Origin: Candidatus Limnocylindria bacterium
GTDB taxonomy: Bacteria; Methylomirabilota; Methylomirabilia; Rokubacteriales; CSP1-6
Length of the DNA stretch: 64,000 nt
Direction of reading: 5' to 3'
Assembly: GCA_035524955.1 (NCBI GenBank)
Contig: DATLFG010000042.1
Span: 45,791-109,790 of the forward strand
Shown here: piece after piece, positions 10,534-55,554 of the stretch
Layout of the letters: each line of letters opens with the position of its first letter
Position numbering within the stretch: the first letter of the stretch is position 1
Translations under genes and position numbers: made by a program
Notes under the pieces: generated by a model
What the model saw: only the letters and a program-made list of their open reading frames with translations
The model's database searches: none
What the model was told of the DNA's origin: nothing

Positions 10534-10782
10534 CTACCCCTGCGGCCAGAGGCGGGAGCGCCGCAGCAGCCCGACCAGCACGAGCAGCATGCACGCGGCG
10601 GGATAGACCGCCGCGCCGCGCGGCCCGGCGTGCGCGACCAGGTAGCCGATCAGCAGGGCGCCGACGGGCGCCCCACCCATCAGACCGAGCTGGAAGAGCG
10701 AGAGGATCCGTGCGCGGTGCGTCTCCGGCGCGGCCAACTGCACCAGCGTCCGGGCCTGCGTCATGACCACGCCCGCCCCCAC
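10534..10782 (-). pseudogene. C-terminal fragment of an MFS transporter
   Basis: 82-aa ORF 'ILSLFQLGLMGGAPVGALLIGYLVAHAG' resembles the last two helices of MFS exporters. It abuts the OsmC stop with no room for the rest of an MFS gene. Confidence 0.35.
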
Positions 10783-10788
10783 GCCGGC

Positions 10789-11211: not shown

Positions 11212-11292
11212 GCGAACCTCCTCTGGATCGTGTGCGCGGGCCTGATTATAAAAGAGCGCCCGCCAGCACGGGGTTTGATATCAAGGAAGGGT

Positions 11293-13218
11293 ATGTCCAC
11301 CGTCCTGGCCAAGCCCCCGACCGCCGAGCCGAAGGCGGCCCCATCCGCGGCCGAGATGGGCGCCCGCCAGCGGGAGATCTCGGTCTCCGAGTTCTTCACC
11401 AAGAACCGCCACCTGCTCGGCTTCGACAATCCGCGCAAGGCCCTCCTCACCTGCGTCAAGGAGGCGGTGGACAACGCGCTCGACGCCGCCGAGGAGGCCG
11501 GCATCCTGCCCGAGGTCGTCGTCACGCTCGAGGTCGCGGCAAACGGCGAGGCGGCAGCGCCGGCCAGCCAGGCGACCCGCTTCCGGGTCACGGTGATCGA
11601 CAACGGTCCCGGCATCGTCCGCCAGCAGATCCCGCCCATCTTCGCCAAGCTCCTCTACGGCTCGAAGTTCCACCGGCTGCGCATGAGCCGCGGCCAGCAG
11701 GGCATCGGCATCTCCGCGGCGGGCATGTACGCCCAGCTCACGACCGGCAAGCCGGTGCAGATCACCTCGAGCACCGGGGCGCGGGCCGCGACGCACTACT
11801 TCGAAGTCCAGATCGACACCAAGAAGAACGAGCCGAGGATCTTCGAGAGCAAGAAGATCGACTGGGACCACCCGCGGGGCACGCAGGTGACGCTCGAGAT
11901 CGAGGGACGCTACCAGAAAGGCCGCGCCTCGGTGGACGAGTTCCTCGAGCAGGTGGCCATCGCCAATCCGCACGTGAGGCTCGTCTACCATGCGCCGGAG
12001 GGGGAGACCCGGCACTACCCGCGGACGATCCAGGAGCTGCCGCCGCAGCCCCGGGAGATCAAGCCGCATCCCTACGGCATCGAGTTCGGCGTGCTCCTCC
12101 GGATGCTCCACGACACCCGGAGCCACTCGCTCTCGGGCTTCCTCGCCGGCGACTTCAGCCGAGTCTCCCCGGCCGTCGCGGTGGAGATCTGCAAGACGGC
12201 CAAGCTCTCGGCGGACGCGCGGCCGCGCAACGTCCACGGCGACGCCGCCGAGGCACTCTACAAGGCCATTCAGGCGACCCGCATCATGGCGCCGCCCTCG
12301 AACTGCATCTCGCCCATCGGCGAGAAGGCGATCCTCCACGGCCTCTACAAGCAGATCAAGGGCGAATTCTACACCGCGGTGACCCGGCCCGCGGCCGTGT
12401 ACCGGGGCAACCCGTTCATCATCGAAGCGGGCCTGGCGTACGGGAAGGGTCCGGACCAGGTGGCGGTCACCCCGGACGCGGCCGCGGTCCCGCTCGCGGA
12501 AGGCGAGCAGCGGGAGGACGACAACGAGCTGGCCCGGGTCATTCGGTACGCCAATCGCGTCCCCCTGCTCTACCAGCAGTCGGCCTGCGCGACCTTCAAG
12601 GCGGTGCTCGAGACCGCCTGGCGCAACTACGGGGTGGCCCAGTCCCGGGGCGCGCTCCCGGCCGGCCCCATGGTGGTGTTCGTCCACATGGGCTCGGTCT
12701 GGGTGCCGTTCACCAGCGAGTCCAAGGAAGCGATCGCCGACTACGACGAGATCCGGAAGGAGATCAAGCTCGCGCTGCAGGAGTGCGGGCGCCGACTCGG
12801 CATGTTCCTGCGGCGGCGCGAGCGGGCCAAGAGCGAGTTTCGCCGGCGCAACATCTTCGAGCTGTACATCGAGGAGGTCGTCGAGGCCTGCGGCCGGCTG
12901 AAGGGCGGTAAGCTGGCCAAGGAGAAGCTCAAGGCCCAGCTCCAGAAGATCGCCCTGAAGCGCACCGGCGGTCCCCGGACCGACGCGATCCTGGGTCACG
13001 AGGGCGGTCCGGAAGGCCTCCCCCACTCGATCATCGTCACCGCCGACGGGCCGGAAGGGGAGGCGCCGGCATTGCCCGGCGCCGAGGGGAGCGCTGTTGC
13101 GCCGCCCGAAGAGGCCCGGCCGGAGAAGACCAAGCCCGCGCCCGCGCGACGGAAGGGCAAGGGCAAGGCCAAGGCGGCAAAGCCCAAGACCAAGGCGCCA
13201 AAGCGCAGGAAGAGGTAG
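11293..13218 (+). CDS. top6B: DNA topoisomerase VI subunit B (GHKL ATPase)
   Basis: 'FFTKNRHLLGFDNPRKALLTCVKEAVDNALDA' Bergerat ATP-binding fold, 'TVIDNGPGI', 'GQQGIGISAA'. Directly followed by top6A. Start ATG at 11293 with an AAGGAAGG RBS. Lys/Arg-rich C-terminal tail. Confidence 0.85.
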   Translation: MSTVLAKPPTAEPKAAPSAAEMGARQREISVSEFFTKNRHLLGFDNPRKALLTCVKEAVDNALDAAEEAGILPEVVVTLEVAANGEAAAPASQATRFRVTVIDNGPGIVRQQIPPIFAKLLYGSKFHRLRMSRGQQGIGISAAGMYAQLTTGKPVQITSSTGARAATHYFEVQIDTKKNEPRIFESKKIDWDHPRGTQVTLEIEGRYQKGRASVDEFLEQVAIANPHVRLVYHAPEGETRHYPRTIQELPPQPREIKPHPYGIEFGVLLRMLHDTRSHSLSGFLAGDFSRVSPAVAVEICKTAKLSADARPRNVHGDAAEALYKAIQATRIMAPPSNCISPIGEKAILHGLYKQIKGEFYTAVTRPAAVYRGNPFIIEAGLAYGKGPDQVAVTPDAAAVPLAEGEQREDDNELARVIRYANRVPLLYQQSACATFKAVLETAWRNYGVAQSRGALPAGPMVVFVHMGSVWVPFTSESKEAIADYDEIRKEIKLALQECGRRLGMFLRRRERAKSEFRRRNIFELYIEEVVEACGRLKGGKLAKEKLKAQLQKIALKRTGGPRTDAILGHEGGPEGLPHSIIVTADGPEGEAPALPGAEGSAVAPPEEARPEKTKPAPARRKGKGKAKAAKPKTKAPKRRKR

Positions 13219-13224
13219 CAACCC

Positions 13225-14331
13225 ATGGCGCGCGCAAAGGCGAAGAAGATCGGAGCCGTCGAGAAGAAGCTCATCAGCGTGGCGGACGCGGTGATCACCG
13301 CCGCCGATCGCAGCAAGGACCCCATGCTGTCGATCCCCGTGCGCAGCCTCGCCAACGTCAACTTCAACGAGAAGCGCGGCATCATCGAGATGGGCAAGCG
13401 CAAGCAGGAGCGCACGTTCTTCAACGTGAGCATGGCGAAGAAGTTCATGCAGACGGTGCTGGTGGCCGACGCCCTGTCCGAGCTGCAGCGGGCCGACCTC
13501 ACGACGTCGCTGCGCGAGATCTACTACCGCACCAAGCACACCATGAAGGACTCGAACGAGAACACGTTCGACAACCAGAACGAATCCGACCCGCTGATCG
13601 AGGACCTCGAGGTCTCGCTGGCCGCGCTGCGCGAAGAGCTCCACGTGCGTGCCGAGAACGCGGGCAGCATCGTGGGGCCCGTCGTCTTCGGCGACGACGG
13701 CGACCGGGTGGACTGCGCGCGCCTCGGCAAGGGCGGTTACTCGGTCCCGTCCATCGTCGAGCCCGACTTCATCGAGATCCGCCGCTGCACCGCCGACTTC
13801 GTCCTGCTCGTCGAGAAGGGCACCCAGTGGAACCGCCTCTCGGAGGATAAGTTCTGGCGCCGGTACAACTGCGTGCTGCTCACCGGGAACGGTCAGCCGC
13901 CCCGCGGAGTCCGGCGCCTGGCGCGCCGCCTGCACGAGGAATACAAGATCCCGGTGTACGTCCTCGTGGACAACGACCCCTGGGGCTACTACATCTACTC
14001 GGTCGTCAAGCAGGGCTCGATCAACCTCGCGTTCGAGAGCGAGCGGATGGCCATCCCCAAGGCCAAGTTCATCGGCCTCTCGAGCGCCGACCCCGACCGC
14101 TACGGCCTCCCCCGCAACGTGGGCATCAAGCTCAACGACAAGGACATCAGCCGCGCCAAGGAGCTGCTCAAGTACCGCTGGCTTCAGAAGAAGCCCTGGC
14201 AGGAAGAGATCAAGCGGATGCTCGCGAGCGGCCTCAAATATGAGCTCGACGCGCTCGCCAACAAGGACTTCCGCTACCTGACCAAGACCTACCTGCCGCG
14301 GAAGCTCAAAGAGGAAGACTGGCTGGACTAG
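13225..14331 (+). CDS. top6A: DNA topoisomerase VI subunit A (Spo11-like, 5Y-CAP + Toprim)
   Basis: Catalytic Tyr motif 'SLREIYYRT'. Toprim 'FVLLVEKGTQWNRL...CVLLTGNGQPPRGVRRLARRL...VYVLVDNDPWGYYIYS'. Confidence 0.9.
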   Translation: MARAKAKKIGAVEKKLISVADAVITAADRSKDPMLSIPVRSLANVNFNEKRGIIEMGKRKQERTFFNVSMAKKFMQTVLVADALSELQRADLTTSLREIYYRTKHTMKDSNENTFDNQNESDPLIEDLEVSLAALREELHVRAENAGSIVGPVVFGDDGDRVDCARLGKGGYSVPSIVEPDFIEIRRCTADFVLLVEKGTQWNRLSEDKFWRRYNCVLLTGNGQPPRGVRRLARRLHEEYKIPVYVLVDNDPWGYYIYSVVKQGSINLAFESERMAIPKAKFIGLSSADPDRYGLPRNVGIKLNDKDISRAKELLKYRWLQKKPWQEEIKRMLASGLKYELDALANKDFRYLTKTYLPRKLKEEDWLD

Positions 14332-14360
14332 CGCTCGGCCCCGCATGCCCCCGTCCACCA
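14232..14360 (+). repeat. Direct repeat copy 1: 3' end of top6A plus ~30 nt downstream
   Basis: About 90% identical over ~130 nt to 23643-23772, including the stop codon. Both copies share 'gagctcgacgcgctcgccaac.aggacttccgc.acctgaccaagacctacctgccgcggaagctcaa.ga.ga.gactggctggactagcgctc.gccccgcat.cccccgt'. Confidence 0.7.
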
Positions 14361-15025
14361 TCAGCGTGGTCGCAGTGACGAAGCGCGACGACCCGGATCC
14401 GGCGCCGCGCCGCCTCCCGGGCGACTGTGCGCATGAGTCCGACCTGGGCGTGCTTGGCCGTCACGTAGGCGACCGAGCCCGGCGCGCCCATGGCCCCGAC
14501 GACGCTGGAGGTGATGATGACGCTGCCGCCATCGTTCATGCGCGGGAGCCCGTACTTGCAGGCGAGGAAGGCCCTGCGCACGTGCACGGCGAGAAGCGCG
14601 TCGAAGGCGTCCTCGGGATACTCGGTCACGGGGACCACCGGGCCCTGGTTGCCGGCGTTGCTGAAGGACACATCGAGCGGGCCGAAGCGCGCGACGGTCC
14701 GCTCGATGTAGCCACGCGCCCCCGTCGCCTGGCTGACGTCCGCGGCGACGGCGTCGACGTGCGGGCTGGCGAGGTCGGCGACCGTGCGCGCGAGCGCGGC
14801 GCCGTCGAGGAATAACGTCGGCTTCAGTTCACGGACCAGAACCGGCCACCGACATCGCTTCTTCCCGCTGACTCGTGCGCCGGCCTTCAGCTCGTCAGCG
14901 TGAAGCGAGCGGTACTCGCGAGGGCTGGCCCCCGGAAGCGCACGGCGCGGCGGGCCCGCCGGCCGCCGGCGGGGGCCCTGCGGGCGATCACCGGCCCGAG
15001 AGCAGACCCCACTCCTGGGCTCTGA
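14306..15025 (-). pseudogene. SDR-family gene fragment lacking the N-terminal Rossmann motif and the normal C-terminus
   Basis: The minus-frame reading 'ALARTVADLASPHVDAVAADVSQATGARGYIERTVARFGPLDVSFSNAGNQGP...GGSVIITSSVVGAMGAPGSVAYVTAKHAQVGLMRTVAREAARRRIRV' is collinear with the intact SDR at 8683-9573. The TGxxxGxG N-terminus is absent and the C-terminus diverges and overlaps the top6A stop. Confidence 0.5.
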
Positions 15026-15100
15026 TCACCGCCTTGACCCGCGTATCCACCCCCAGGGCGTCGAAGATGGCCTTCAGGTGGGCCTTGGCCGTCCGCTCGC
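14988..15100 (-). pseudogene. Fragment of a LuxR-type HTH (C-terminal half only)
   Basis: 'AEIAEGPGISERTAKAHLKAIFDALGVDTRVKAVIRAQEWGLL' matches the second half of the LuxR/GerE HTH. No receiver or sensor domain lies upstream. Confidence 0.35.
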
Positions 15101-15198
15101 TGATCCCCGGGCCCTCGGCAATCTCGGCGTGCGCTCCGGGAACTCCTCGGCGACCACGGTGAGGTGGCGCCGGCGGCCCCACCGATGCCGAGGGCCAG

Positions 15199-15813
15199 AT
15201 GCCCGGCATGCGGCCGATCACCAAGCGGCTGGTTCACGGCCGGGACCACGGGGTGGCCCTCCTGGCCGAGGGTCTCCTCGTGGATCCGGGAGACCCCGGC
15301 GAGAAGCTCGACCCGCAGACGCTGGGGTCGGTGGAGCGCGACGCCTACGGAAACGTGCGCCCGGAAGAGCTGGAGCTGGCGCGGCTGCTCAAGACGCGGG
15401 TGGCGGCGAGCCTGGCGGCGCGGGGTATCGGGACCGGCATCGTGGCCAAGGATCTCGGCTACGAGCTCCGCTGCGCCCCGCCGGGTGGGTTCGACATCCA
15501 GTACTGCCGGAGCCTCGGCTACTGGGCCACACGCTTCCTGCTCGACGGCGGCACCGAAGCGCTGGCGACGATCCAGGGCGGCCGGCTGGTTCCGATCCCG
15601 TTCGGGGATCCACTCGACCCGACGACGGGCAAGATTCGCTTTCGCTACGCGGACATCCACTCGGAGGCGTACCGGACGCTCCACGCTTACATGATCCGCC
15701 TCAAACGTGAGGACTTCGAGCGGCCCGAGCAGCGGGAGGCTCTCGCTCGGGCCGCCAAGCTGAGCGAGCCGGAGTTCGTCCACCGTTTCGGATACGTCGC
15801 CGGCTACGGCTGA
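15199..15813 (+). pseudogene. 3' fragment of a pyrophosphate/ATP-dependent 6-phosphofructokinase gene
   Basis: 204 aa: 'IVAKDLGYELRCAPPGGFDIQYCRSLGYWATRFLLDGGTEALATIQGGRLVPIPFGDPLDPTTGKIRFRYADIHSEAYRTLHAYMIRLKREDF' resembles the C-terminal ~200 aa of PFK (group III/PPi type). The N-terminal ~150-200 aa are absent upstream. Confidence 0.5.
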
Positions 15814-16117
15814 GGAGAATGCCCGAGCGAGCATGCGCCACAGAACCGCGACGGTCCGGATGGCAACCACAAGCTACCCACGGGTGGCTCGGATGAACAA
15901 CCTCCTGACACTTCACACCCCAGTCGCCTCAGCAGGTTGATCACGTACCGGGCGGCGTTGGATCAACCGCCCGCTCCCAGCTTGTCTCGAGCCTGGCATC
16001 CGCATCCGCCCTCGGCTTAGAAGTGCACCTCAGGGACCTGCGACGAATTCAGACCAAGTTCCAGTGATACATAGTCGTTGATTACGAGGCAACCGGCGAC
16101 CCGCCGCGCTTCGATGC

Positions 16118-16792
16118 CTAACGGGCTTCTACCAAGGCGCTCAACTCGGCACTCGATCCAGGCAGCAGCTCCGAGGCGGGGGCCAGATAGACGCTGCCGG
16201 GGCGAGTGTTGCGGGTGATCAGCGCACCTGCGCCAACAATGCAGCCGGCAGCGACCGTCACACCCGCCCTCACCGTGGCGTTGGCGCCGATGATGCAGTA
16301 GGGCTCAACGGTAGAATCCCCCAAGACCACACTATGCGGCCCCAGAAAGCAGTGATCCTGGATTTCCGTATGGTGACCCACAACACTTCCGGTCTCGATC
16401 ATCACGTTGCTTCCGATACGCGCGAATGGCTTTATCACCACGTTCTCGTAAACAAAACAGTTCTCCCCGACCACCGCTTCCGGCCATGTCACGGCCCGGG
16501 AGCTCACGTAGCTCACGAGTCGGTAGCCTTTAGCCTGCGCCTGCTGAAACTTCTCCGCACGCAGTTGGTTGACTCTCTTCAGACCGATGGGAACCGCCAT
16601 CAGATACTCCTCCGGCGGATATTGTTGAGCGATCTCTTCAAACGGAACCACGGGACAGCCCTGCAACTCAGGCTGCCTTATGTACGCCCGGTCCACGGTA
16701 AACGCAGCGACTTCGTGGGGTGAATCGTGACTCAGGTAGAAGTGATTCATCTCCGCGAAAGGCTCGTTGCCGAAAATCACAACCTTGCTCAT
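16118..16792 (-). CDS. Hexapeptide-repeat acyltransferase, NeuD/PglD-like sugar N/O-acyltransferase family
   Basis: 224 aa. N-terminal alpha/beta domain followed by a left-handed beta-helix with hexapeptide repeats '(I/V)G.N..I...' such as 'IGSNVMIETGSVVGHHTEI', 'LGDSTVEPYCIIGANATV', 'GCIVGAGALI'. The start ATG overlaps the NRPS stop (ATGA). Confidence 0.7.
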   Translation of the reverse strand: MSKVVIFGNEPFAEMNHFYLSHDSPHEVAAFTVDRAYIRQPELQGCPVVPFEEIAQQYPPEEYLMAVPIGLKRVNQLRAEKFQQAQAKGYRLVSYVSSRAVTWPEAVVGENCFVYENVVIKPFARIGSNVMIETGSVVGHHTEIQDHCFLGPHSVVLGDSTVEPYCIIGANATVRAGVTVAAGCIVGAGALITRNTRPGSVYLAPASELLPGSSAELSALVEAR

Positions 16793-19700
16793 TCCCGAGC
16801 CCCCTCGTTGTCAGCCGCCAGCAAGAATGCCGCCAGCTTGTCGACGGTAGAATAGCGAAATAGATCCGCGATTGCGACCGGCCGGTCTACGAGCGGGCTG
16901 ATACGCCGGTGCAACTGTATGGTTAGCAAAGAGTGTCCGCCGAGGTCGAAAAAATCGTCGTGAACGTCGACCCGGGGAACACCCAATACTTCCTGCCAGA
17001 TCGAAACGAGTTGCTGCTCCAGACCGCCAAGGCGCTCGGACGGAACGGCCCCCAGCTCAACGACTGGGACCGGAGTCGCGCCCGGCGGTGGAAGCGCTTT
17101 GCGGTCGATCTTCAAGTTGGGCGTTAGCGGGAATTCGCGGATTTCGACGAAGTGCGACGGCACCATGATCTCGGGCAGCTTTGCGCGAAGATGGTCGCGC
17201 AGCTCTATCACCGGGACACCGGCGGATCCGTTAGGCGTCACATACGCGACCAGGCGCTTGTCCCCGGGAGTATCTTCACGCGCCAGCACCACGGACTTGC
17301 CGACACCAGGGTGCCCGTCGAGCAGGGCTTCGATCTCGCCGAGCTCGATGCGATAGCCGCGCAGCTTCACCTGGCCGTCGCTCCGGCCCAGAAATTCGAC
17401 ATTGCCGTCGGAGCGATAGCTCGCCACGTCACCGGTCCGGTAGAGGCGTCCGTCAGAACCGCCGAATGGGTCGCTCACAAACCGGTCGGCGGTCAGATCG
17501 GGCCGCTTCCAATATCCGCGAGCAACCCCCTTCCCGCCGATGTACAAGTCACCCGCCGTGCCGATGGGTACCAACTGCATGCGGTGGTCAAGGATGTACA
17601 TAGCGGTGTTGGCGATCGGCCGTCCGATGGGAATCGTGGTCTCGTTGCCGGTAACCGTATAGGTGGACGACCAGACCGTGGTTTCCGTGGGGCCATACAT
17701 GTTGATCAGCTTCCCGAGTACAAGCTCTCCCAGATCCTGGGCCTGTGTTGCGGGAAGCGCCTCGCCCCCCACCATCATCACCCTCAAGCCGCGCAGGGCC
17801 AGACGCGACTCCCGATCGGCGGTCAACAGACCGGCCATTGACGGGGTGCACTGCAGATGCGTCACCTTGTGGCGGGCGATCAGGGCCGGGATGGCCGACT
17901 GCCCCGCCGTTTGCACCGGAACGTCAGCGGCGAGCCTCCGCAAGCGATTCAGATGCTCCAGATGCTGAAACGCGGTTGAGGAGGCAACCCCGAAGTCGAT
18001 CAGGCAGGCAAGCTCATCGATGCCGATTCCCTTCAATCGATGAACCATCGCGAGGCAGGTCTCGACCGTCCCGAATAGTCCGCTCGTCTCGAAGTACCGA
18101 TCGAAGGCGTGGTTCAGGATGCCAGACTTCTCCTCTGGCGTGAGGCTCTGTGCAGCAAACATCTGGCTGAGGGTTTGCCCCGTTGCAGAGGCGCGCTCCT
18201 TGAACGCCGGGAACGACCAGGCGGCCTGCTCGGTCAGATCCAGCGCGCTGGCCAGGTAGTCAATCATCGGCTCACGCACGACTTCGCGCACCTGACCATC
18301 ATCGTCGCCGACGAAGGTATGCAGCATCAGCGTCACGTAGCCATCGCCCGGATGCCCGTGTTCCCGCCACGCTTTACGGTAGATGGAGAGCTTCTCGGCC
18401 AGTTGCTCCACACCTTGCCCCAACAGGTGGGTGAGAATCCGGAAGCCTCCGGTGCCCGCCCTGCGAAACGTCTCCGGGTTTCCCGCCACTGTGACCCAGA
18501 CCGGCAACTCGGCTTGAACGGGCCGAGGCAGGGTCCGCACTTCAACCTCTTTGTGGTCGGGGCCGGGAAAGCGGATCGTTTCCCCCCGCCACAGCCGGCG
18601 GACAGTCTCGATACCGCGAAACATCGTATCCTGCCGGTTGGCGTACTGCTCCGGTTGCAGCACGAAGTCGTTCGGCTGCCAGCCGGAGGCAAACGAGATC
18701 CCGACGCGGCCACCGGAAATGTTGTCTACGACCGACCATTCCTCGGCGATCCGGATGGGGCTGTGCAAGGGAGATACGCAGCTACCCGCGCGGAGGCCGA
18801 TCGATTTCGTGATCGACGCCAGAGCGGCGCTGGTGACAGACGGATTGGGATACAATCCGCCAAACGCACCGAAGTGCCGTTCCGGTGTCCATACCGCGGC
18901 GAAGCCATTCTGGTCGGCGAACTTGGCCCCTTCGAGCAGGAGAGCGTACTTATTGGCGGCGTTCTCTCCTTCGTCGCTGGCGAAATAGAACAGGCTGAAG
19001 TCGATGCCGGCCGCTCGAGTTCCCCTCTCCGTGCCACCGTGGAGGATTACCTTGAACCCACGCGCCATGGTCCAAAACAACTCCAGCACCGAGATGTCGA
19101 AGGAGAGGCTGGTCACCGCCAGCCAGGTCCCCGGTGGACTGTGCGGAATACAATCATCCATTCCCGCGAAGAGGTTCGTGACGTTGCGGTGCTCGACCAT
19201 CACACCCTTGGGCCTGCCGGTGGACCCCGACGTATAAATGACATAGATCAAGTTACTGCCAGTCACGCCGCTGTCCAGATTGTCCTCGGGTTCCCGTTCG
19301 ATGCTCCCCCAGTCAGTGTCGATGCAGACGATCTTCGCGCGATGAGGAGGCAGCCGGTGGAGCAGACCTTGTTGCGTCAGTAGAATCGCGCACCGGGCGT
19401 CTTCGACCATCAACGCCAGCCGGTCCGCGGGATAGGCGGGATCGAGCGGAACATACGCCGCGCCGGCTTTGAGAATCCCGTAGACGCCCGTCAGCAGATC
19501 GATCGAGCGTTCCACGCAAATACCGACGAGCACTTCAGGTCCTGCGCTCAAGTTCCGCAGGTGTCGGGCCAGTTGGTTGGCCGCGCGATTCAGCTCGTCG
19601 TAGGTCCGCCGTTGGTCTCCACAGACCAGGGCTACCGCGTGCGGGGTCCGCTTCACCTGTTGCTCGAAGAGTTCGTGAACGCTCGCGTCGACCGGATACG

Positions 19701-21351
19701 CCTTGTGAGTGGCATTCCACGTTACCAGGAGCCGTTCGCGTTCAGCGTCCGTGAGGATGGGGACGCCCGCTAGAGGCGCGTCGAGATGTGCCGCCAGGTG
19801 CTGCAGGAATGCCGTGAAGGCGCGCTGGAGTTCGAGAATATGAGCCTGGCCGAAGACCGAGGTCCGATAGGTCCAATGACTCGTGCATCCGTCGCGCGAC
19901 ACAGCGATCGTCAGGTCGTTATCCGCGGCGTTCTCTGGTTCGTCCCGTTGAAGGATCCCGATCGGCAGCCGCATGGCCCGGCCGGCCAGTTCCGGAGTGC
20001 GAGCTACCAGGGAACGCGCATACGTCTGATTGGCTCGGGCGCTCTCCAGGTCGTTCAGCACGGCACGCAGTGCAGCGTCCACGCTGGCGTCACCGTCCAA
20101 TGTGACGCGCACCGGGACCTGAAGAGCGAAGAATTGCTCAAGACCCGACAGCGACTCCTCCAAGCCGACGTGTCCGAAGCCGATATCAAAGGAAGTGTGT
20201 CCTGTGGTCCGCGCCAGGTACAGAATCAACGCTGCTGTCAGGACATCCACGGGTTCGCCCGCCGCGGTGGGGACCGGCGGGACGGAGAGGGCCGCCGTCC
20301 CACGAGACTCCACTCCTTGCGTGCTCGCGCCCCGGCCCTCGGAGGGAAGTTCCAGGGGTGCAAGCTGCAGGAGGCGCTGCAGCCAGAATTCCTCGTGCCG
20401 GACGATACTCTGACCTAGCTGCGTGAGAGTTACTGCGGTACCCGCTGGGAGCGCCTCGAAGCGGTAGCCGGCAGTAATCCCAGCCGTGGCGACGTCCAAC
20501 GCCTCTCCACCGATGTCGAGCAACTGAGAAACTACAACTTGATTGGTCGACGTGGCCACACGAACGGAATTACCGTCGACAGATAGCACCGTACCCGGCG
20601 GGCTCTCAGAGAATGCCGGCAGCACCTCCAGCTTCGGCACGAGAAGCACGGTTTCGCCGCTGATCACCTTTGGAATCTCGAGGGGATTCGGATAAGGGCG
20701 GAAGTCGAGGGAACGCACAAAGGCGGCTATTGTTTCGGCGGGCAGGCTCCAGTCGATGCAAGCCTGGGCCGCGGGCCGCGCGTGCTTCGCAAAATACGTT
20801 CGCTCGGAAAGGCTCTGCGGGAGGGCTCGAAGCGTCCCATCGCCCAAGGCTTTGATCAGCTCCTCAAAGGAATCGATTCCGGCCTTGAAGCATTTGCGAT
20901 TCAGCGTAAACGCCGTTTCATCGGGAGCGAGCGCAAAGAAACGCTGCTGGAAAATGTCGCCTGTATCCACGATCTCTCGCATCTCGTGCCAAGTGACGCC
21001 GTGGGACGTCTCCTGATTGAGGATGGCCCACGTGGTGGCGTGCAAACCGGCGTATCTCGGCAACGGACCATCGTGAAAATTAATGGCGCCAAAACGAGGC
21101 AGCGCCAAGATCCGAGCCGGAACGAGGGATAGGTTGGCAATACTGAACAGGTAATCGAAGGGCCGACCATCCATCGAAGAGAGAACTTCGTCCTGGCGGG
21201 AGACACAACGGATCTTCTGTTCTTGGGCCCATTCTTGGATCACATCGTTGGCGGACACGATGATCTCTATCTTGTGCTTGTAGCGAAGAAGAATCTCCGC
21301 GCAGGGGATCAGAAGAGCTCCCTCCCCCAGAATGAGCGTGCTGAATGTCAT
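16789..21351 (-). CDS. Single-module non-ribosomal peptide synthetase: formyltransferase domain, partial (C-terminal) condensation domain, adenylation domain with inserted luciferase-like monooxygenase domain, thiolation domain
   Basis: aa ~1-290 resemble Fmt N- and C-domains ('HDGPLPRYAGLHATTWAI'). aa ~290-560 resemble the post-C3 half of a C domain ('EFWLQRLLQLAPLELPSEG', 'LTDAERERLLVTWN') with no HHxxxDG. A domain motifs: A1 'TYDELNRAANQLA', A2 'LKAGAAYVPLDP', A3 'YTSGSTGRPKG', A4 'SFDIS', then a ~340-aa LLM domain ('IDFSLFYF...ALLLEGAKFADQNGFAAVWTPERHF...SGGRVGISFASGW'), then A5 'NMYGPTETT', A7 'YRTGD', A8 'GRSDGQVKLRGYRIELGEIE', A10 'PNLKIDRKAL'. PCP 'FFDLGGHSLL'. There is no TE, R or C-terminal C domain. 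Confidence 0.9.
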   Translation of the reverse strand: MTFSTLILGEGALLIPCAEILLRYKHKIEIIVSANDVIQEWAQEQKIRCVSRQDEVLSSMDGRPFDYLFSIANLSLVPARILALPRFGAINFHDGPLPRYAGLHATTWAILNQETSHGVTWHEMREIVDTGDIFQQRFFALAPDETAFTLNRKCFKAGIDSFEELIKALGDGTLRALPQSLSERTYFAKHARPAAQACIDWSLPAETIAAFVRSLDFRPYPNPLEIPKVISGETVLLVPKLEVLPAFSESPPGTVLSVDGNSVRVATSTNQVVVSQLLDIGGEALDVATAGITAGYRFEALPAGTAVTLTQLGQSIVRHEEFWLQRLLQLAPLELPSEGRGASTQGVESRGTAALSVPPVPTAAGEPVDVLTAALILYLARTTGHTSFDIGFGHVGLEESLSGLEQFFALQVPVRVTLDGDASVDAALRAVLNDLESARANQTYARSLVARTPELAGRAMRLPIGILQRDEPENAADNDLTIAVSRDGCTSHWTYRTSVFGQAHILELQRAFTAFLQHLAAHLDAPLAGVPILTDAERERLLVTWNATHKAYPVDASVHELFEQQVKRTPHAVALVCGDQRRTYDELNRAANQLARHLRNLSAGPEVLVGICVERSIDLLTGVYGILKAGAAYVPLDPAYPADRLALMVEDARCAILLTQQGLLHRLPPHRAKIVCIDTDWGSIEREPEDNLDSGVTGSNLIYVIYTSGSTGRPKGVMVEHRNVTNLFAGMDDCIPHSPPGTWLAVTSLSFDISVLELFWTMARGFKVILHGGTERGTRAAGIDFSLFYFASDEGENAANKYALLLEGAKFADQNGFAAVWTPERHFGAFGGLYPNPSVTSAALASITKSIGLRAGSCVSPLHSPIRIAEEWSVVDNISGGRVGISFASGWQPNDFVLQPEQYANRQDTMFRGIETVRRLWRGETIRFPGPDHKEVEVRTLPRPVQAELPVWVTVAGNPETFRRAGTGGFRILTHLLGQGVEQLAEKLSIYRKAWREHGHPGDGYVTLMLHTFVGDDDGQVREVVREPMIDYLASALDLTEQAAWSFPAFKERASATGQTLSQMFAAQSLTPEEKSGILNHAFDRYFETSGLFGTVETCLAMVHRLKGIGIDELACLIDFGVASSTAFQHLEHLNRLRRLAADVPVQTAGQSAIPALIARHKVTHLQCTPSMAGLLTADRESRLALRGLRVMMVGGEALPATQAQDLGELVLGKLINMYGPTETTVWSSTYTVTGNETTIPIGRPIANTAMYILDHRMQLVPIGTAGDLYIGGKGVARGYWKRPDLTADRFVSDPFGGSDGRLYRTGDVASYRSDGNVEFLGRSDGQVKLRGYRIELGEIEALLDGHPGVGKSVVLAREDTPGDKRLVAYVTPNGSAGVPVIELRDHLRAKLPEIMVPSHFVEIREFPLTPNLKIDRKALPPPGATPVPVVELGAVPSERLGGLEQQLVSIWQEVLGVPRVDVHDDFFDLGGHSLLTIQLHRRISPLVDRPVAIADLFRYSTVDKLAAFLLAADNEGARE

Positions 21352-21878
21352 AGGATTGCCGCCTTGACCACTGCCAGGATCACCAAGATGCTAGCCGGGA
21401 TGTACTGGCCACCACCCCGGCACCCCTGCTGGCATAGACCTCGAGGCCGCCGTGCGTGATGTGCGAGCCACGGGCCGGCTCCAGTGCCTGGCGTGATCAG
21501 CGTGGCGGTGATGCCCTGAAGGGGGCTGATAGTGCTACGGATAGATCTGGCTACCACGATGAACCGGGCACGCACAGACACCCTCCAGCGAAGGCCCTAC
21601 TGCCTCTCCTCAGAGGGCGTGGAGCGCGAGTATAAGCGGAGCGGGCGGGAGGAGCAAGGGCTGAACCGGCAACAGCGGCTTTTCAAGACGGCGGGCGTCT
21701 GATCCGACATGCCCGGTCCTTCACCCTGCAGGTGGCCGAAAGCCAGCTGGCGCTGACTCTCTTTCAACAGATCATCGGGCGCCTCGAACGACTCGCATGG
21801 GATCCGACGTGACCGAGCGGACTGTCCAGACGGGGAGCAGGTGCGGCGCCGGCGGGAGTGCCAGCACGGCGGGCGCAG
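21352..21878 (-). promoter_or_regulatory. Long (~525 nt) non-coding leader/promoter region upstream of the NRPS gene
   Basis: No convincing ORF between the NRPS start (21351) and the upstream acetyltransferase stop (21879). Only short off-frame ORFs are present. Confidence 0.25.
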
Positions 21879-22505
21879 TTAAGGCCGGGTTTGGGAAGGA
21901 ATCGGCCGTGCCGGCACACCGACGACCGTCGTGGCTGGCTCGACATTCTTGGTAACCACGGCACCCGCGCCCACAACCGCCCAATCGCCGACATGTAACC
22001 CGGGAAGCACGATGCTCCCGAGCGCAAGGAAGACGCCTTCACCGATCGACGCGCCACCGCCGAGGTGCGCAACAGCGATATGGGCATAGTCGCCGACGTG
22101 GCAGTGATGGTCGACGCTCGCTTTGGTGTTCAAGATGACGTGAGCACCGATGCAGGCGCCGGCTTGGACGATGCCGCCGGCAAACACGACGCTGCCAGGG
22201 CCTAGGGTCACATCCGGATGGACCGAAGAGAATGGATGCACCGCGGTTGTCCACTCGATCTCGATCTCGTGGCTGATGCGTTTGCGCACGTGATTGTCAC
22301 CGACGCCGATGATGGCGCGCGTGCAGGTGGAATCACGCACAGCCGCGATCGGCCCGCGGATGGGAACGCCCAAGACGTTGTTTCCCCAATTCTTGGGCGA
22401 GTCATCGAAGAGTGCGACGACCTTCCGGCCCATCGCATGCAGAGTGGCGACGACCACCGCCGCGTGCCCCCCTGCGCCAAGAACCGCGATGCGCTCGTCA
22501 GCCAC
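21879..22505 (-). CDS. PglD/NeuD-family hexapeptide sugar N-acetyltransferase-like protein
   Basis: 208 aa. N-terminal 'IAVLGAGGHAAVVVATL' Rossmann-like domain typical of PglD/NeuD, then hexapeptide beta-helix 'IGAHVILNTKASVDHHCHVGDYAHIAVAHLGGGASIGEGVFLALGSIVLPGLHVGDWAVVGAGAVV'. Confidence 0.7.
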   Translation of the reverse strand: MADERIAVLGAGGHAAVVVATLHAMGRKVVALFDDSPKNWGNNVLGVPIRGPIAAVRDSTCTRAIIGVGDNHVRKRISHEIEIEWTTAVHPFSSVHPDVTLGPGSVVFAGGIVQAGACIGAHVILNTKASVDHHCHVGDYAHIAVAHLGGGASIGEGVFLALGSIVLPGLHVGDWAVVGAGAVVTKNVEPATTVVGVPARPIPSQTRP

Positions 22506-22748
22506 GGCGCGACCTTACTCGCCCTCTGACACCAAAACAAGAGACAGATATGCGAATCTACCGGGAGGACTTCCATCGCTCTCCTGAACCGATACCGTTC
22601 GGCTCTTGCCGGAGCCAGTTTGCCGAGGTGGGGGATGACCTCGATCCTGCCCAGCTCGAAGCTTCCCGGACCTCATTCAGCGTCACCTGCGCCCCTCGGG
22701 GTTCAACGTTGACGAGCACACCAAAAAGCGCGTAGCATCCATCCCACA

Positions 22749-23564
22749 ATGCGGTATGCTTCACTACCTATCGACGAAGTTCATCTCTGGTGCGCGCACC
22801 CCAGTGAGCTCAACCGCGACGACGTTTACGACGTCGCTCGACATATGATCACTTCAGAAGAGGCTCAGCGGCTGGAGCGCTTCTGCTTCGCTCGGGACCG
22901 ACAGACTTATCTGGCAACTCGTGTTCTCGTCCGTACGGTACTTTCCCGGTACGAGCCACTGGCGCCGGCTGCTTGGCGATTCATCGTCGGACAGTACGGC
23001 CGCCCAGAGATCGTACACGATCAACCAGCGCTCCATTTTAATCTCTCTCACACCAATGGGCTTGTCGTCTGTGCCGTCGCCCGAGATCTTGATGTCGGAG
23101 TCGATGTCGAACACATCGGCCGCCCAGCGCCTCTTGAGGTCGTCGATCATTTTTTCGCGCCCACGGAGATCGCGGCCTTGCGCGCGCTACCGGACGCTGA
23201 GCAGCAGCGCCGATTCTTCGATTACTGGACACTCAAAGAAAGTTACATCAAGGCTCGGGGCTTGAGCCTAGCGCTGCCCGTCGATCGCTTTGCCTTCACG
23301 CTCTCGGCGGACGGCAAAGCGAACCTCAGAATAGATCCCGCGCTTGGGGAAGGTGCACCATGGCAATTTACTCGGCATTGGCCAACCTCCGAACACATAG
23401 TTTCCGTGTGCGTGACACGTCGCCGCGACGAGGACGCGAAGATCATCCTCGGATGGCACTCGTTGGCCAGATCAATCGCGGACAGCGGCCACGAGGGCGC
23501 AACCCATTTCACAAGCTGGTCGAGGCCGCCGAACAAGGTCTCGATCTCCGATGCGGTATTGTAG
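22749..23564 (+). CDS. Sfp-type 4'-phosphopantetheinyl transferase
   Basis: 'FNLSHTNG', 'VGVDVE', 'FFDYWTLKESYIKARG' are the signature motifs of Sfp/EntD-type PPTases. Divergent from the upstream acetyltransferase gene. Confidence 0.8.
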   Translation: MRYASLPIDEVHLWCAHPSELNRDDVYDVARHMITSEEAQRLERFCFARDRQTYLATRVLVRTVLSRYEPLAPAAWRFIVGQYGRPEIVHDQPALHFNLSHTNGLVVCAVARDLDVGVDVEHIGRPAPLEVVDHFFAPTEIAALRALPDAEQQRRFFDYWTLKESYIKARGLSLALPVDRFAFTLSADGKANLRIDPALGEGAPWQFTRHWPTSEHIVSVCVTRRRDEDAKIILGWHSLARSIADSGHEGATHFTSWSRPPNKVSISDAVL

Positions 23565-23642
23565 ATGGAGGCTGAGGCGCGCAGCACCTCTCCACTGGTG
23601 CAGCTGTCAGCCACAGGCTGTGCGCACGTGCATGCTCGCGTC

Positions 23643-23772
23643 CGGCCCCAAGTACGAGCTCGACGCGCTCGCCAACGAGGACTTCCGCGACCTGACCAAG
23701 ACCTACCTGCCGCGGAAGCTCAAGGAAGAGGACTGGCTGGACTAGCGCTCAGCCCCGCATACCCCCGTTCGC
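23643..23772 (+). repeat. Direct repeat copy 2: displaced or duplicated top6A 3' end (last ~31 codons plus stop plus ~30 nt)
   Basis: Encodes 'KYELDALANEDFRDLTKTYLPRKLKEEDWLD*' against top6A 'KYELDALANKDFRYLTKTYLPRKLKEEDWLD*'. The post-stop sequences are also similar: 'tagcgctc(g/a)gccccgcat(g/a)cccccgt'. Confidence 0.7.
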
Positions 23773-23783
23773 CCCGACTGCCC

Positions 23784-24560
23784 TCAAGGCCGCACGGCGG
23801 GCGAGTCGATGGTCATCCCTCTCGCTCGCCACATCAGGAACACCTCGAGGTCCACGAACTCGCGACCCCCATACTCGTACGGCTCCGCCCGCATCCCGAC
23901 CATGCAGTTGCGTAACCGCCGCTGGAGCGAGCCCAGCCCCTGCCACTCCAGCCGGTAGAGCGGATACCCCGTCGGGTGCCCCTGCGGGATCACGTTCCCG
24001 GCGAGCCGCCGCCCCCAGTGGTCGTCATGACACTGACTGCACGCCAGATTGAGCTGCCCCTGCCGCCGATAGAACGTAGCGCGTCCGGCATCGACGAACG
24101 CCTGCATCCGCGGGTCGACGACCCGGTTGATCGGCATCCCGCGCGACTGCCGCGCGACGAAGGCGGCCAACGCCAGCAGATCGCGACCCTCCCAGGCCAG
24201 CCGCGGCGCCTGCTGCCGGTCGACCCGGCAGCGGTTGATCCGCTGCTCGAGGTTGACCGGCCGTCCCATCCCCGCGTCGAACGCCGGATGCCGCGCCGCC
24301 ACGCCCTTCATGCTGGTCCGAGCATCGCCATGGCAGTCCGCGCAGGCCCGTCCCGCCGCCCCGACCTTCCGCCCCCACAGCGACTCGCCCTCGAGCACCC
24401 AGAGCATCCCGGGATTCGCGGTGTCGTCGTCCTGCATCGCCCGCGTCTCCCGGCTCATGAAGTCGTACCCCGCCCGGCGCTCGCCCAGGGGGATCTCGCC
24501 GGCCGGGGCCGACGCCGCTACCACCACGATACCGAACAGCGCGGCCCCCACGAGCCGCAC
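23784..24560 (-). CDS. soxA: Diheme cytochrome c SoxA (thiosulfate oxidation)
   Basis: Signal peptide, two CxxCH motifs ('CADCH', 'CSQCH'), ~258 aa. Adjacent to the soxZ, soxY and soxX homologues. Confidence 0.7.
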   Translation of the reverse strand: MRLVGAALFGIVVVAASAPAGEIPLGERRAGYDFMSRETRAMQDDDTANPGMLWVLEGESLWGRKVGAAGRACADCHGDARTSMKGVAARHPAFDAGMGRPVNLEQRINRCRVDRQQAPRLAWEGRDLLALAAFVARQSRGMPINRVVDPRMQAFVDAGRATFYRRQGQLNLACSQCHDDHWGRRLAGNVIPQGHPTGYPLYRLEWQGLGSLQRRLRNCMVGMRAEPYEYGGREFVDLEVFLMWRARGMTIDSPAVRP

Positions 24561-24564
24561 GCGG

Positions 24565-24909
24565 CTAGCTGACCGTGATGGCCGCCGACTCCGTCACCGA
24601 GAAGCCGTTGTCGCCGGTCCAGGTGAAGGTCAGTGTGCCGCTCTCGGTGGCGACGGTCGAGAACACGAGGAACGGATTGGCGGCGATCGCCGGATGCAGG
24701 TCGGCGCGAAAGACCTCGGCGCCGTTGTAGGTGCAGACGAACTGCCGGATGATGTCGCGGGCGATCGGCGCGCCGGCCTCGGTGCGGCGGTGACCGGTCT
24801 CCATGACGTGGGAGATCAGCGTCTTGATCTCGATGATCTCGCCGCGCCTGGCCTGGCCCGGGACGTTGATCAGCGCGCGCGCCACGGCTAGAGGGGCCCT
24901 TCCAGGCAC
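24565..24909 (-). CDS. soxZ: Thiosulfate oxidation carrier complex protein SoxZ
   Basis: 114 aa with a SoxZ-like beta-sandwich sequence ('IIEIKTLISHVMETG', 'FTWTGDNG'). Overlaps the soxY-like gene by ~20 nt. Confidence 0.7.
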   Translation of the reverse strand: MPGRAPLAVARALINVPGQARRGEIIEIKTLISHVMETGHRRTEAGAPIARDIIRQFVCTYNGAEVFRADLHPAIAANPFLVFSTVATESGTLTFTWTGDNGFSVTESAAITVS

Positions 24910-25352
24910 GCGGCCAGGGTGACCACGACGGTGGCGCGATCCGACCAGAACGAGCCGTCGCTCAGCTCGCCGATGGCGACGACGGTCTGCGTGTTGGCGA
25001 GCCGGACGCGGGTCGACACGCGCGCCCGGCCGGAGCGGGGGCTGAAGCGGAACGTGGCGACGTCGGGCAGCGGGTTGATCTCGGTGAAGACGTGGACGGC
25101 CCGGACGTGGTCGGCCTCGGTCATCGGGCTCTCGACGCTGACCGTCAGCGGGACGGCGTGGCCGTTCTCGGACAGCGGGGGCAGCTCGAGCTTCACCCGG
25201 CCCGGCGTGACGGGGGCGGAGCCCACCACCCGGCGGATGGCGGCCTGCATCCGCTCGGGGGTCGCCCCGGTGGGGCGAACGGCGACGATCGACACCAGGC
25301 CGAGCCCGGCGCCGGCGGTCCGGAGGAACGCGCGGCGGTCCATGTCTGTCAC
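24888..25352 (-). CDS. soxY: Thiosulfate oxidation carrier protein SoxY
   Basis: Tat signal 'RRAFLRTAGAGLGL', ~154 aa with a C-terminal Cys-containing tail ('VTLAACLEGPL'). Position between soxX and soxZ. Confidence 0.65.
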   Translation of the reverse strand: MTDMDRRAFLRTAGAGLGLVSIVAVRPTGATPERMQAAIRRVVGSAPVTPGRVKLELPPLSENGHAVPLTVSVESPMTEADHVRAVHVFTEINPLPDVATFRFSPRSGRARVSTRVRLANTQTVVAIGELSDGSFWSDRATVVVTLAACLEGPL

Positions 25353-25816
25353 TCTCGCAGCGTCGTCAAGAAGGCGACCACGTCCTCGATCTGCTCGGCG
25401 GTCAGCACGGGCTTGCCGCGGAACGCGGGGGCGACCCGTGTCAGGCCGTCGGTCCGATGATACGCCGGCATGATCGTCGCCGGGTTGACCCGGGCGGGAT
25501 CGACGATCCGCTGGCGGATCTGCGCCTCGGACAGCCGGCTGCCGACGCCGGCCAGGTTGGTGGCCAGCTCACCCTGGAAGCGTTCCTCCGGGAACGGCCC
25601 GCTGTGGCAGAGCAGGCAGAGTCCGACCTGGCGGTCGGCGACGATCGCCCGGCCGCGCGCCGGATCGCCTGGGGCGCCGGTGAGCGACTCCGGGATCCCG
25701 TCCCGTCCGTGCGCCACACCGGCCACCAGGCAGCTCATCGCGACGAGGGCGGCGGCGGCCGCGCGCCGTGGGGTTGGCGCCGCCCGGCCCGGCCCGGTCC
25801 GCCCGTCTCTCACCAT
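25349..25816 (-). CDS. soxX: Monoheme cytochrome c SoxX
   Basis: Single 'CLLCH' heme motif and a hydrophobic N-terminus ('MSCLVAGVAHG'). The listed ORF (to 25954) has a GC-rich, Arg-rich N-terminal extension that is probably not translated. Confidence 0.55.
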   Translation of the reverse strand: MVRDGRTGPGRAAPTPRRAAAAALVAMSCLVAGVAHGRDGIPESLTGAPGDPARGRAIVADRQVGLCLLCHSGPFPEERFQGELATNLAGVGSRLSEAQIRQRIVDPARVNPATIMPAYHRTDGLTRVAPAFRGKPVLTAEQIEDVVAFLTTLRE

Positions 25817-25823
25817 GGGTGAC

Positions 25824-27098: not shown

Positions 27099-27379
27099 CT
27101 CTGTCCCGCGTACCAGGCCGCGATGGCCCGGATCTCGTCGTCCGTGAATCCCTTGGCGATCCGGTCCATGACGGTGCCCGGGCGCTGCCCCGAGCGGAAC
27201 TCCTGCATGGCCTTCACGATCGCGGCCTGGTCGACCCCGAGCAGCCGCGGCACGGGCGTGGTCACGCGCGCCGAGGTCGCGTGACACCCCGAGCACGAGA
27301 CGGCGCCGGCCGGAGGCTCGGCCGACGCGGTCGCCGCGATCGAGGCGACCCCGATCGCAGCGACCAGGAGCCTCCCCAT
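27095..27379 (-). CDS. Cytochrome c subunit of flavocytochrome c sulfide dehydrogenase (FccA/SoxE-like)
   Basis: 94 aa with a signal peptide and a single 'CSGCH' heme motif. Immediately upstream of the flavoprotein gene. Confidence 0.6.
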   Translation of the reverse strand: MGRLLVAAIGVASIAATASAEPPAGAVSCSGCHATSARVTTPVPRLLGVDQAAIVKAMQEFRSGQRPGTVMDRIAKGFTDDEIRAIAAWYAGQR

Positions 27380-55548: not shown

Positions 55549-55554
55549 CGCCTT

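Follow-up and report, generated by a model that had tools for sequence, protein, structure and literature searches.

A NeuD/PerB-like acyltransferase as candidate trans off-loader of a single-module nonribosomal peptide synthetase

We examined a stretch of 64,000 nucleotides (hereafter, the window) from contig DATLFG010000042.1 of the assembly GCA_035524955.1, labelled Candidatus Limnocylindria bacterium. It contains a gene for a single-module nonribosomal peptide synthetase (NRPS) that ends in a peptidyl carrier protein (PCP) domain, and two genes for acyltransferases of the NeuD/PglD type, named AT1 and AT2 here, which flank the NRPS gene. An earlier reading made from the letters of the window (the sequence-only reading) had suggested that one of the two enzymes off-loads the PCP-bound group onto an amine. 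Comparison with homologous loci supports this for AT1, which recurs beside the NRPS, is coupled to it in translation and alternates with a thioesterase (TE) in homologues, and does not support it for AT2. We tentatively propose that AT1 is the dedicated trans off-loader of the NRPS and acts onto an amine, most probably that of a 4-amino nucleotide sugar, and we hold the narrower claim, that AT1 is a partner of the PCP, with more confidence. The domain content, the glycine code, the intact catalytic residues, the conserved coupling, the alternation of TE and AT1, and the contexts of the family are direct observations and are described below. The genes at the locus are:

16118-16792, minus strand: AT1, a NeuD/PerB-like left-handed β-helix (LbH) acyltransferase of 224 aa (TIGR03570, PerB match, ATGA overlap)
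16789-21351, minus strand: single-module NRPS of 1520 aa with formyltransferase (F), condensation-remnant (C*), adenylation (A, with a luciferase-like monooxygenase) and PCP domains (Pfam, NCBIfam and PDB matches)
21879-22505, minus strand: AT2, a PglD/EpsM/PerB-type amino-sugar N-acetyltransferase of 208 aa with a GTG start (PglD_N and Hexapep, TIGR03570)
22749-23564, plus strand: an Sfp/HetI-type 4'-phosphopantetheinyl transferase (PPTase), divergent from AT2 (ACPS and AASDHPPT_N, Pfam)

Both the table of open reading frames (ORFs) and the sequence place the tetranucleotide ATGA at 16789-16792, where the ATG of AT1 shares bases with the TGA stop of the NRPS, as the sequence-only reading had noted. 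AT2, the second PglD/NeuD-like gene that it had placed upstream of the NRPS, is confirmed as such (183.3 bits with TIGR03570) and is separated from the NRPS start by 527 bp. This gap contains no Pfam-positive ORF; a 77-aa ORF within it belongs to no Pfam family and does not encode an MbtH-like protein. An Rfam scan of 15000-24500 gave no matches at E ≤ 0.1, and the regions upstream of the NRPS, aligned from six loci, share no conserved leader. In a promoter and terminator scan the signals were at or below the expectation from shuffled sequence, and the sole promoter-like site precedes the PPTase gene.

Domain content of the NRPS and its predicted product

The domains of the NRPS, given with residue numbers of the protein, are:

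20482-21351, minus strand: F domain (Formyl_trans_N and Formyl_trans_C), residues 1-290 (Pfam)
19717-20454, minus strand: C*, a remnant holding only the C-terminal part of a condensation domain, residues 300-545 (Pfam)
19006-19716, minus strand: N-terminal part of the A domain (motifs A1-A4), residues 546-782 (AMP-binding; alignment to LgrA and 1AMU)
17938-18999, minus strand: MupA/Atu3671-type luciferase-like monooxygenase (MOx), residues 785-1138 (TIGR04020, PuwE)
17077-17907, minus strand: C-terminal part of the A domain (A5-A10), residues 1149-1425 (code DILQMGMVWK against 1AMU)
16822-17016, minus strand: PCP with the serine motif GGHSL, residues 1446-1510 (PP-binding, E=1e-13)

Among PDB entries, the F domain is nearest to ArnA-FT, Fmt and sugar N-formyltransferases (E ~1e-22) and matches the F domain of LgrA far more weakly (1e-5), and its triad N91/H93/D129 is invariant in six homologues. 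The Pfam Condensation match is limited to residues 473-542, which correspond to profile positions 385-456 of 456, and no HHxxxDG motif is visible in translated residues 300-545. A partial protein from Streptomyces niveus (P0181) has an F domain, a C*-like region and an A domain with no monooxygenase insert, and is 31% identical to the F-C* region of the window over 483 residues. From this likeness, the remnant may be a linker that is shared with the F-A loading modules of actinomycete assembly lines.

The core A-PCP module is present (AMP-binding, AMP-binding_C and PP-binding in Pfam; TIGR01733), and the monooxygenase is inserted in the A domain between A4 and A5, that is, between FDISVLE and NMYGPTE. 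The inserted domain scores 506 bits with TIGR04020 (cut-off 244) and matches the solved structure of PuwE (6KET) at E=3e-113. For the specificity code, we removed the MOx insert, aligned the A domain to 1AMU and checked the 1AMU numbering; the code reads DILQMGMVWK, which we take to be a glycine-type Stachelhaus code (cf. DILQLGLIWK and variants). The pattern DILQ[ML]GM[VI]WK is found in all eight homologues checked, the most distant of which is cyanobacterial.

The PCP is the last domain, at residues 1446-1510 of 1520, and Pfam finds neither a TE, a reductase (R) nor a terminal condensation (C) domain in the NRPS, in which 10 residues remain after the PCP; the sequence-only reading was thus right that no release domain is present. 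The window has no TE match anywhere, and past the module it encodes neither a ketosynthase (KS) nor a C domain; the next gene is AT1.

Known systems suggest what the carrier arm may hold. A formylglycyl-S-PCP has been proposed for the F-A(Gly)-PCP loading modules of conglobatin, oxazolomycin and rhizopodin (PMC4504003). In the myxothiazol and melithiazol glycine modules, a MOx at this A4-A5 position hydroxylates Cα, and collapse of the resulting carbinolamide gives a carrier-bound glyoxylate that is left for the TE (PMC11342130, PMC10204066), while α-hydroxyglycine is kept in solanimycin B and spergualin (PMC10204066). From the glycine code, the position of the MOx and the F-A(Gly)-PCP precedent, we infer that the likely PCP-bound species are N-formylglycyl, then N-formyl-α-hydroxyglycyl, and possibly glyoxylyl. 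The group assembled on the carrier arm of the NRPS is thus probably a glycine that is both formylated and hydroxylated, and the '(formyl/hydroxy)aminoacyl' product of the sequence-only reading is narrowed, through the code of the A domain, to a glycine-derived unit.

AT1 at the release position

AT1 scores 171.2 bits with the NeuD/PglB/VioB model TIGR03570 (cut-off 160.8), aligned over residues 3-204. Its top PDB match is PerB, a GDP-perosamine N-acetyltransferase (E=6e-17), followed by PglD, PglB-ATD, VioB, QdtC and WeeI. H140 in its 'GHH' motif aligns with the catalytic histidine of PerB, the residue that is mutated in 4EAA and 4EAB (equivalent to PerB H141 and PglD H125), and this position is at least 90% conserved across relatives of AT1. 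In all, AT1 has more than 1000 relatives. No match to PF17836 (PglD_N) was found in AT1 at E ≤ 0.01. An AlphaFold model shows a β-α-β N-terminal domain at low confidence, and when this weak model was compared with the PDB by Foldseek, no match fell below E=0.04, and WeeI and PerB appeared only as weak matches. The NRPS-linked AT1s group as a single clade in a neighbour-joining tree that carries no support values. This clade falls within the half of the family whose loci have acyl carrier protein (ACP), ligase or acyl-CoA dehydrogenase (ACAD) genes; the other half is a group linked to WbqC and 'U310' (described below), and AT2 is a distant outgroup.

AT2 is most simply seen as a PglD-type N-acetyltransferase of the ordinary kind, which was recruited beside the cassette in this lineage and probably stands outside the conserved unit. 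Besides passing TIGR03570 (cut-off 160.8, as above), it matches PF17836 (PglD_N) at E=9e-14, and Hexapep, and its PDB matches are PerB (1e-33), PglB-ATD (1e-26), VioB (1e-21) and PglD (1e-20). Its 'VDHH' motif aligns with the same catalytic histidine of PerB, and its homologues carry the source name EpsM. A 77%-identical homologue sits in a PglF-DegT-Bac_transf-AT2-GNAT-GT4 cluster with no carrier protein, and AT2 is found beside the NRPS only where it is 93-99% identical (L001, L091, L094, L095, L102, L121, L126 and L132). We rejected AT2 as the off-loader on these grounds: the pairing is limited to a lineage, the matches to PerB, PglB, VioB and PglD are much better than those of AT1, and the cluster of the homologue is carrier-free.

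The pairing of the NRPS with AT1 is more widespread. We scanned one genome per species with AT1, which gave 80 loci, and searched their flanks for the NRPS by tblastn with the domains of the window. In the reciprocal direction, the F-C* region was searched against metagenome contigs, and architectures were counted there because the protein search with F-C* gave mostly truncated proteins. By tblastn, a full NRPS lies directly upstream of AT1 in L001 (97%), L002 (84%) and L003 (62%, Acidobacteria, with a PPTase), and look-ups of contigs added L081/82, L083/84 (Methylomirabilota, PPTase adjoining), L085/86, L088 and L091. The pair was found in about 27 loci, so that the search for the same pairing in other genomes, which the sequence-only reading had called for, shows recurrence for AT1 in several phyla as assigned to metagenome-assembled genomes (MAGs). 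A PPTase gene also adjoins the cassette in L003, L083/84, L094, L095 and L102, that is, in only some of the loci. The stop and start codons overlap by 4 or 8 nt in an NTGA-type arrangement in 23 of the 27 NRPS/AT1 junctions, among which the PCP identity ranges from 68 to 99%. The overlap is not due to chance, because it is kept in so many homologous junctions, and the translational coupling first read from the window is borne out.

For the release position, we divided the homologues into tier 1, with an F-C* region at least 59% identical to that of the window, and tier 2, with an F-C* region 34-50% identical and the same F-C*-A(MOx)-PCP architecture. Sixteen tier-1 loci continue beyond the PCP; AT1 comes next in every one of them, and a TE in none. 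In tier 2, AT1 is present in none, and a cis thioesterase of ~285 aa follows the PCP in 12 loci. Three further tier-2 NRPSs (L157, L158 and L161) have an extension of 183 aa after the PCP (86 aa in L158; e.g. L161:5766-6317), followed by a PPTase gene; the extension, which may be a release domain of a different kind, has no match among the families of Pfam or NCBIfam. On a single metagenome contig, one 1748-aa ORF (L167:3046-8292) encodes F-C*-A(MOx)-PCP and then, in frame, a hexapeptide LbH domain of 216 aa, which is Maa/WcaF-like and scores 48.6 bits with TIGR02353, the terminal domain of the Pls/PosA NRPSs, far below the cut-off of 423.

As AT1 in tier 1 alternates with a cis TE in tier 2, AT1 fills, in trans and with coupled translation, the slot that is held by a TE in homologues. 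This position argues that AT1 acts on the PCP-bound product, and is the strongest argument that we have. The suggestion that one NeuD/PglD enzyme off-loads the PCP is thus supported for AT1, by recurrence, coupling and alternation with TE, and not for AT2.

The TE-bearing tier-2 loci (L137, L139, L141, L142, L144, L145, L148 and others) have neighbours of their own: a FemAB-like GNAT upstream, and downstream an LbH gene on the opposite strand, a haem-oxygenase-like protein and a stand-alone luciferase-like monooxygenase. L144 and L145 have a polysaccharide deacetylase upstream as well.

The acceptor, competing explanations and precedents

The neighbours of AT1 relatives point to glycans. Clustering of the neighbours in the 80 genome loci found a DegT aminotransferase in 49, a WbqC-like protein (PF08889) in 22 and 'U310', a protein of ~310 aa with no Pfam family (e.g. 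L012:10678-11610), in 32. Other frequent neighbours are Wzm/Wzt, GT2 and Bac_transf genes, and two more conserved neighbours are proteins without a Pfam family: 'c23' (~225 aa; L012:11614-12291), a neighbour of AT1-like genes in glycan clusters, and 'c25' (~385 aa; L040:14783-15943), which follows the AMP ligase near AT1-like genes. Two layouts recur, DegT-WbqC-AT-U310-c23-GT2 and Wzm-Wzt-AT-GNAT-ACP-ACAD-AMP ligase-c25. In about 32 of the 80 loci, the 10-kb flanks include a carrier-protein domain, which is usually no more than a few kb from the AT1-like gene.

Two loci join the NRPS itself to such genes. On the single contig L002, NRPS-AT1 and a LuxR regulator are followed by Wza-Wzc-CapD-Bac_transf-DegT, and the cyanobacterial L015 has the same NRPS embedded in the order GT4 - Bac_transf - AT - NRPS - ACP - KASIII - AT - GNAT - DegT - Wzc. 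By their gene content, both loci place the NRPS inside predicted PglF/PglE/PglC-type (bacillosamine-type) clusters. In the window, the genes in question are:

5-2008, minus strand: a CapD/PglF-type 4,6-dehydratase (Pfam)
1927-4224, minus strand: Wzc (Pfam)
4221-5438, minus strand: Wza (Pfam)

These three, and a GT2 gene at 51999-53054, confirm the exopolysaccharide (EPS) genes named by the sequence-only reading, with the exception of GT39: the 568-aa ORF at 50286-51992 has no Pfam match. The left edge of the window cuts CapD, so genes like those for PglC and PglE may follow a little beyond it.

From these data we infer a scheme, in which every chemical step, the donor, the acceptor and the product are our interpretation. 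The adjacent Sfp-type PPTase would prime the PCP, and the A domain would load glycine. The ArnA/Fmt-like F domain would then N-formylate glycyl-S-PCP with formyl-tetrahydrofolate, and the MOx embedded in the A domain would hydroxylate Cα. AT1, as a PerB/PglD-like LbH transferase, would transfer the product, bound to the PCP as a thioester, to an amine, the transferred group being N-formyl-(α-hydroxy)glycyl, or glyoxylyl after loss of formamide. The acceptor would most probably be the 4-amino group of a nucleotide-linked 4-amino-4,6-dideoxyhexose from a PglF/PglE-type pathway, and the acylated sugar would then enter an exported polysaccharide. AT2 would act apart from this, as a PglD/EpsM enzyme of the acetyl-CoA type in the same sugar pathway.

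Several observations weigh against this scheme. The glycan genes of the window at 5-5438 are on the strand of AT1 and lie 11 kb downstream of it, there is no DegT gene inside the window, and in most tier-1 cassettes no amino-sugar gene is found within 10 kb. The WbqC/U310-linked half of the AT1 subfamily has no carrier protein, so that the default donor of the subfamily may be acyl-CoA, and in the ACP-linked loci the ACP is often adjoined by a GNAT, which could be the true ACP-dependent enzyme. AT1 scores only 48.5 bits with the LpxD model (cut-off 242.5) and 36 with LpxA (cut-off 231). Its structure model, made from a 17-sequence alignment, is weak (pLDDT 71.5, pTM 0.47), and we draw nothing from the structure. 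Finally, a small LbH gene of 146-148 aa adjoins the TE-bearing NRPS in seven tier-2 loci; since TE-bearing homologues also keep a nearby LbH gene, the LbH partner need not be the releasing enzyme.

The first competing explanation is that AT1 does off-load the PCP, and that the acceptor is a small amine, an amino acid or water rather than a sugar, which would give a small soluble metabolite such as N-formyl-α-hydroxyglycine amide. The cassette is compact and sits among unrelated genes, with flanks elsewhere that hold hydantoinases, peptide ABC transporters, MFS proteins and amidohydrolases, and the scarcity of sugar genes within 10 kb of tier-1 loci fits this explanation. Release from those tier-2 homologues that have a cis TE must yield a free acid, and acyclic α-hydroxyglycine amides exist in nature, e.g. 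spergualin (PMC10204066). However, the invariant residues of the N-terminal domain of AT1 are common to relatives in DegT/glycan clusters, the nearest solved relatives of AT1 all act on nucleotide amino sugars, and L002 and L015 tie the NRPS physically to PglF/PglE/PglC-type genes. We consider a non-sugar acceptor unlikely.

The small tier-2 LbH gene suggests another explanation, in which AT1 is an acetyl-CoA-dependent tailoring enzyme that acetylates the α-hydroxyl or another group of a PCP-bound or released intermediate, and release occurs spontaneously, e.g. through carbinolamide collapse and hydrolysis, or via a TE encoded elsewhere. An LbH gene adjoins this NRPS even where it has a TE in cis, many LbH enzymes, including members of the wider NeuD family, are O-acetyltransferases, and the carrier-free, WbqC-linked half of the subfamily points the same way. 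However, the tier-2 gene is from a different subfamily, Maa/WcaF-like and without the NeuD-type N-terminal domain, no tier-1 locus has a TE, and the strict stop/start coupling to the PCP end of the NRPS suits a stoichiometric partner better. A tailoring role is in our judgement quite unlikely. That the adjacency is meaningless, with AT1 and AT2 serving the nearby EPS pathway as common amino-sugar N-acetyltransferases and the product of the NRPS unrelated to them, would agree with the match of both to the NeuD/PglB/VioB model, their conserved catalytic histidine and the plain PglD-type clusters of AT2 relatives, but is disfavoured for AT1 and very improbable, because the pairing is kept down to 62% identity in several MAG-assigned phyla with differing flanks, the overlap is conserved and AT1 alternates with TE in homologues.

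Off-loading by AT1 onto an amino sugar, the proposal that we tentatively prefer, can be compared with known systems. Like PerB, PglD, VioB, PglB-ATD and WeeI, AT1 and AT2 pass the TIGR03570 cut-off and have an LbH with a catalytic histidine, which is preceded by an N-terminal α/β domain in AT2 and probably also in AT1. AT1 differs from this family in being a distant member without PglD_N in Pfam, in its coupling to an NRPS PCP and in the place of its clade among ACP- and ligase-linked relatives, and the characterised members of the NeuD/PglB/VioB family use acetyl-CoA as the donor. A parallel to the proposed donor is found in WfpG of Flavobacterium psychrophilum, a PglD homologue predicted to take an acyl group from the dedicated ACP WfpD onto UDP-Qui2NAc4N (PMC6519341). 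The logic is the same as for AT1 with its PCP and for the AT-ACP-ACAD-ligase loci, both cases being predictions, whereas the donor of WfpG is an ACP like that of type II fatty acid synthase with a 3,5-dihydroxyhexanoyl group, and the donor proposed here is an NRPS PCP (with F and MOx) with a glycine-derived unit.

MtaG and MelG, the C-A(MOx)-PCP-TE modules of myxothiazol and melithiazol, and SolF of solanimycin also have a glycine A domain with a MupA-type MOx at A4-A5, and the TE end of the MtaG/MelG type is common to the tier-2 homologues. The NRPS of the window differs from all three in having only a C remnant, an F domain instead of an upstream chain and a NeuD-type gene instead of a TE, and in being a stand-alone module. 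A formyltransferase is likewise fused to A-PCP in the F-A(Gly)-PCP modules of conglobatin, oxazolomycin and rhizopodin (PMC4504003) and in the F-A-PCP of LgrA; those modules feed a polyketide synthase or NRPS line, whereas the NRPS of the window has no downstream module, an embedded MOx and an ArnA/Fmt-like F domain. LpxA, LpxD and the terminal LbH domain of the Pls/PosA NRPSs (TIGR02353) are LbH acyltransferases that use a carrier-protein thioester as the donor, as is proposed for AT1, and in Pls/PosA the LbH is fused as the last NRPS domain, whereas AT1 is encoded by its own gene, belongs to the NeuD subfamily and scores far below the TIGR02353 cut-off. In butirosin biosynthesis (BtrI/J/K/O/V/H/G), an acyl group derived from an amino acid, which ends as 4-amino-2-hydroxybutyrate (AHBA), is assembled on a carrier protein; a luciferase-like monooxygenase hydroxylates it at C-2, and it is then moved onto the amine of an amino sugar. 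There, the transferring enzyme BtrH is not an LbH protein, loading is by an ATP-grasp enzyme instead of an A domain, and the product is an aminoglycoside instead of a glycan. All the parts are thus known (the NeuD/PerB fold, the A(MOx) glycine module, F-A(Gly)-PCP, carrier-dependent LbH enzymes), and what appears to be new is their combination, with the TE replaced by a coupled NeuD-family gene. We found no description of an F-A(MOx)-PCP and NeuD pairing in the open-access literature searched.

Genomic surroundings of the cassette and significance

The AT1, NRPS, AT2 and PPTase genes form a compositional island, with a G+C content of 61-62% against ~70% for the window and a G+C content at third codon positions of 0.71-0.74 against 0.85-0.97 for the neighbours. 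The features around it, and a row of genes near the other end of the window, are:

10630-14331, plus strand: topoisomerase VI B/A pair (Topo-VIb_trans; TP6A_N/Toprim), conserved beside the cassette in relatives (Pfam)
14218-14354, no strand: left copy of a direct repeat of 137 bp, formed by the 3' end of the topoisomerase VI A gene, 91% identical to the right copy (blastn)
14306-14671, minus strand: truncated short-chain dehydrogenase, covering profile positions 83-177 of 195 (Pfam)
15199-15813, plus strand: ORF of 204 aa with host-like codon bias and no Pfam family (Pfam scan)
23632-23768, no strand: right copy of this repeat, directly beyond the PPTase gene and ahead of soxA (blastn)
23784-27296, minus strand: sulfur-oxidation block with soxA-like and soxZ-like genes (by eye), SoxY and a flavocytochrome c sulfide dehydrogenase flavoprotein (Pfam)
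54247-63819, minus strand: dnaA, dnaN, recF, gyrB, gyrA and serS in a row

The two 137-bp repeats bracket AT1, NRPS, AT2 and PPTase together with ~1.7 kb of gene fragments, and there is no integrase between them. In contig L094, which is 100% identical, the same repeat fragment lies beside the PPTase gene. The ORFs at 14306-14671 and 15199-15813, between the topoisomerase VI A gene and AT1, look like rearrangement debris; a guess by eye that the latter is a phosphofructokinase fragment was dropped as it has no Pfam match. The cassette adjoins the topoisomerase VI A gene in the relatives L087 and L091 too, which suggests that it is an old acquisition inherited within the lineage. In comparison with L091, the sox block, a molybdenum enzyme and a regulator were apparently inserted between the epimerase and AT2.

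The row from dnaA to serS indicates that the window adjoins the region of the chromosomal replication origin, and Wza and MlaC are diderm features in the window; with the G+C content of 70%, they may point to a soil organism resembling Methylomirabilota/Rokubacteria. The labels of the MAGs clash: the 97%-identical L001 is labelled Propionibacteriaceae, the 84%-identical L002 Dormibacterota, and an 82%-identical AT1 Methylomirabilota. They cannot all be correct for such similar DNA.

A broader claim would be that the cassette represents a widespread route of soil bacteria from several phyla, in which a PerB/PglD-like LbH transferase replaces the TE and passes a glycine-derived acyl group to a bacillosamine-type 4-amino sugar, giving exopolysaccharides or glycoproteins decorated by an NRPS, with AT1 as the first NeuD-family enzyme that has a PCP donor. 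We regard this extension as conceivable and still doubtful. The minimal cassette, the NRPS with AT1, is small enough for reconstitution in vitro, and the TE-bearing, LbH-fused and AT1-coupled homologues are natural controls. If the proposal is true, it joins nonribosomal peptide assembly with nucleotide-sugar tailoring, two fields that are usually apart, and a sugar-type LbH transferase can stand in for a TE as the release device of an NRPS. The donor range of the PglD/PerB enzymes would then widen from acyl-CoA to peptidyl carrier proteins, and an unusual glycan substituent, an α-hydroxyglycine carbinolamide or a glyoxylyl aldehyde, would be predicted in uncultivated soil lineages.

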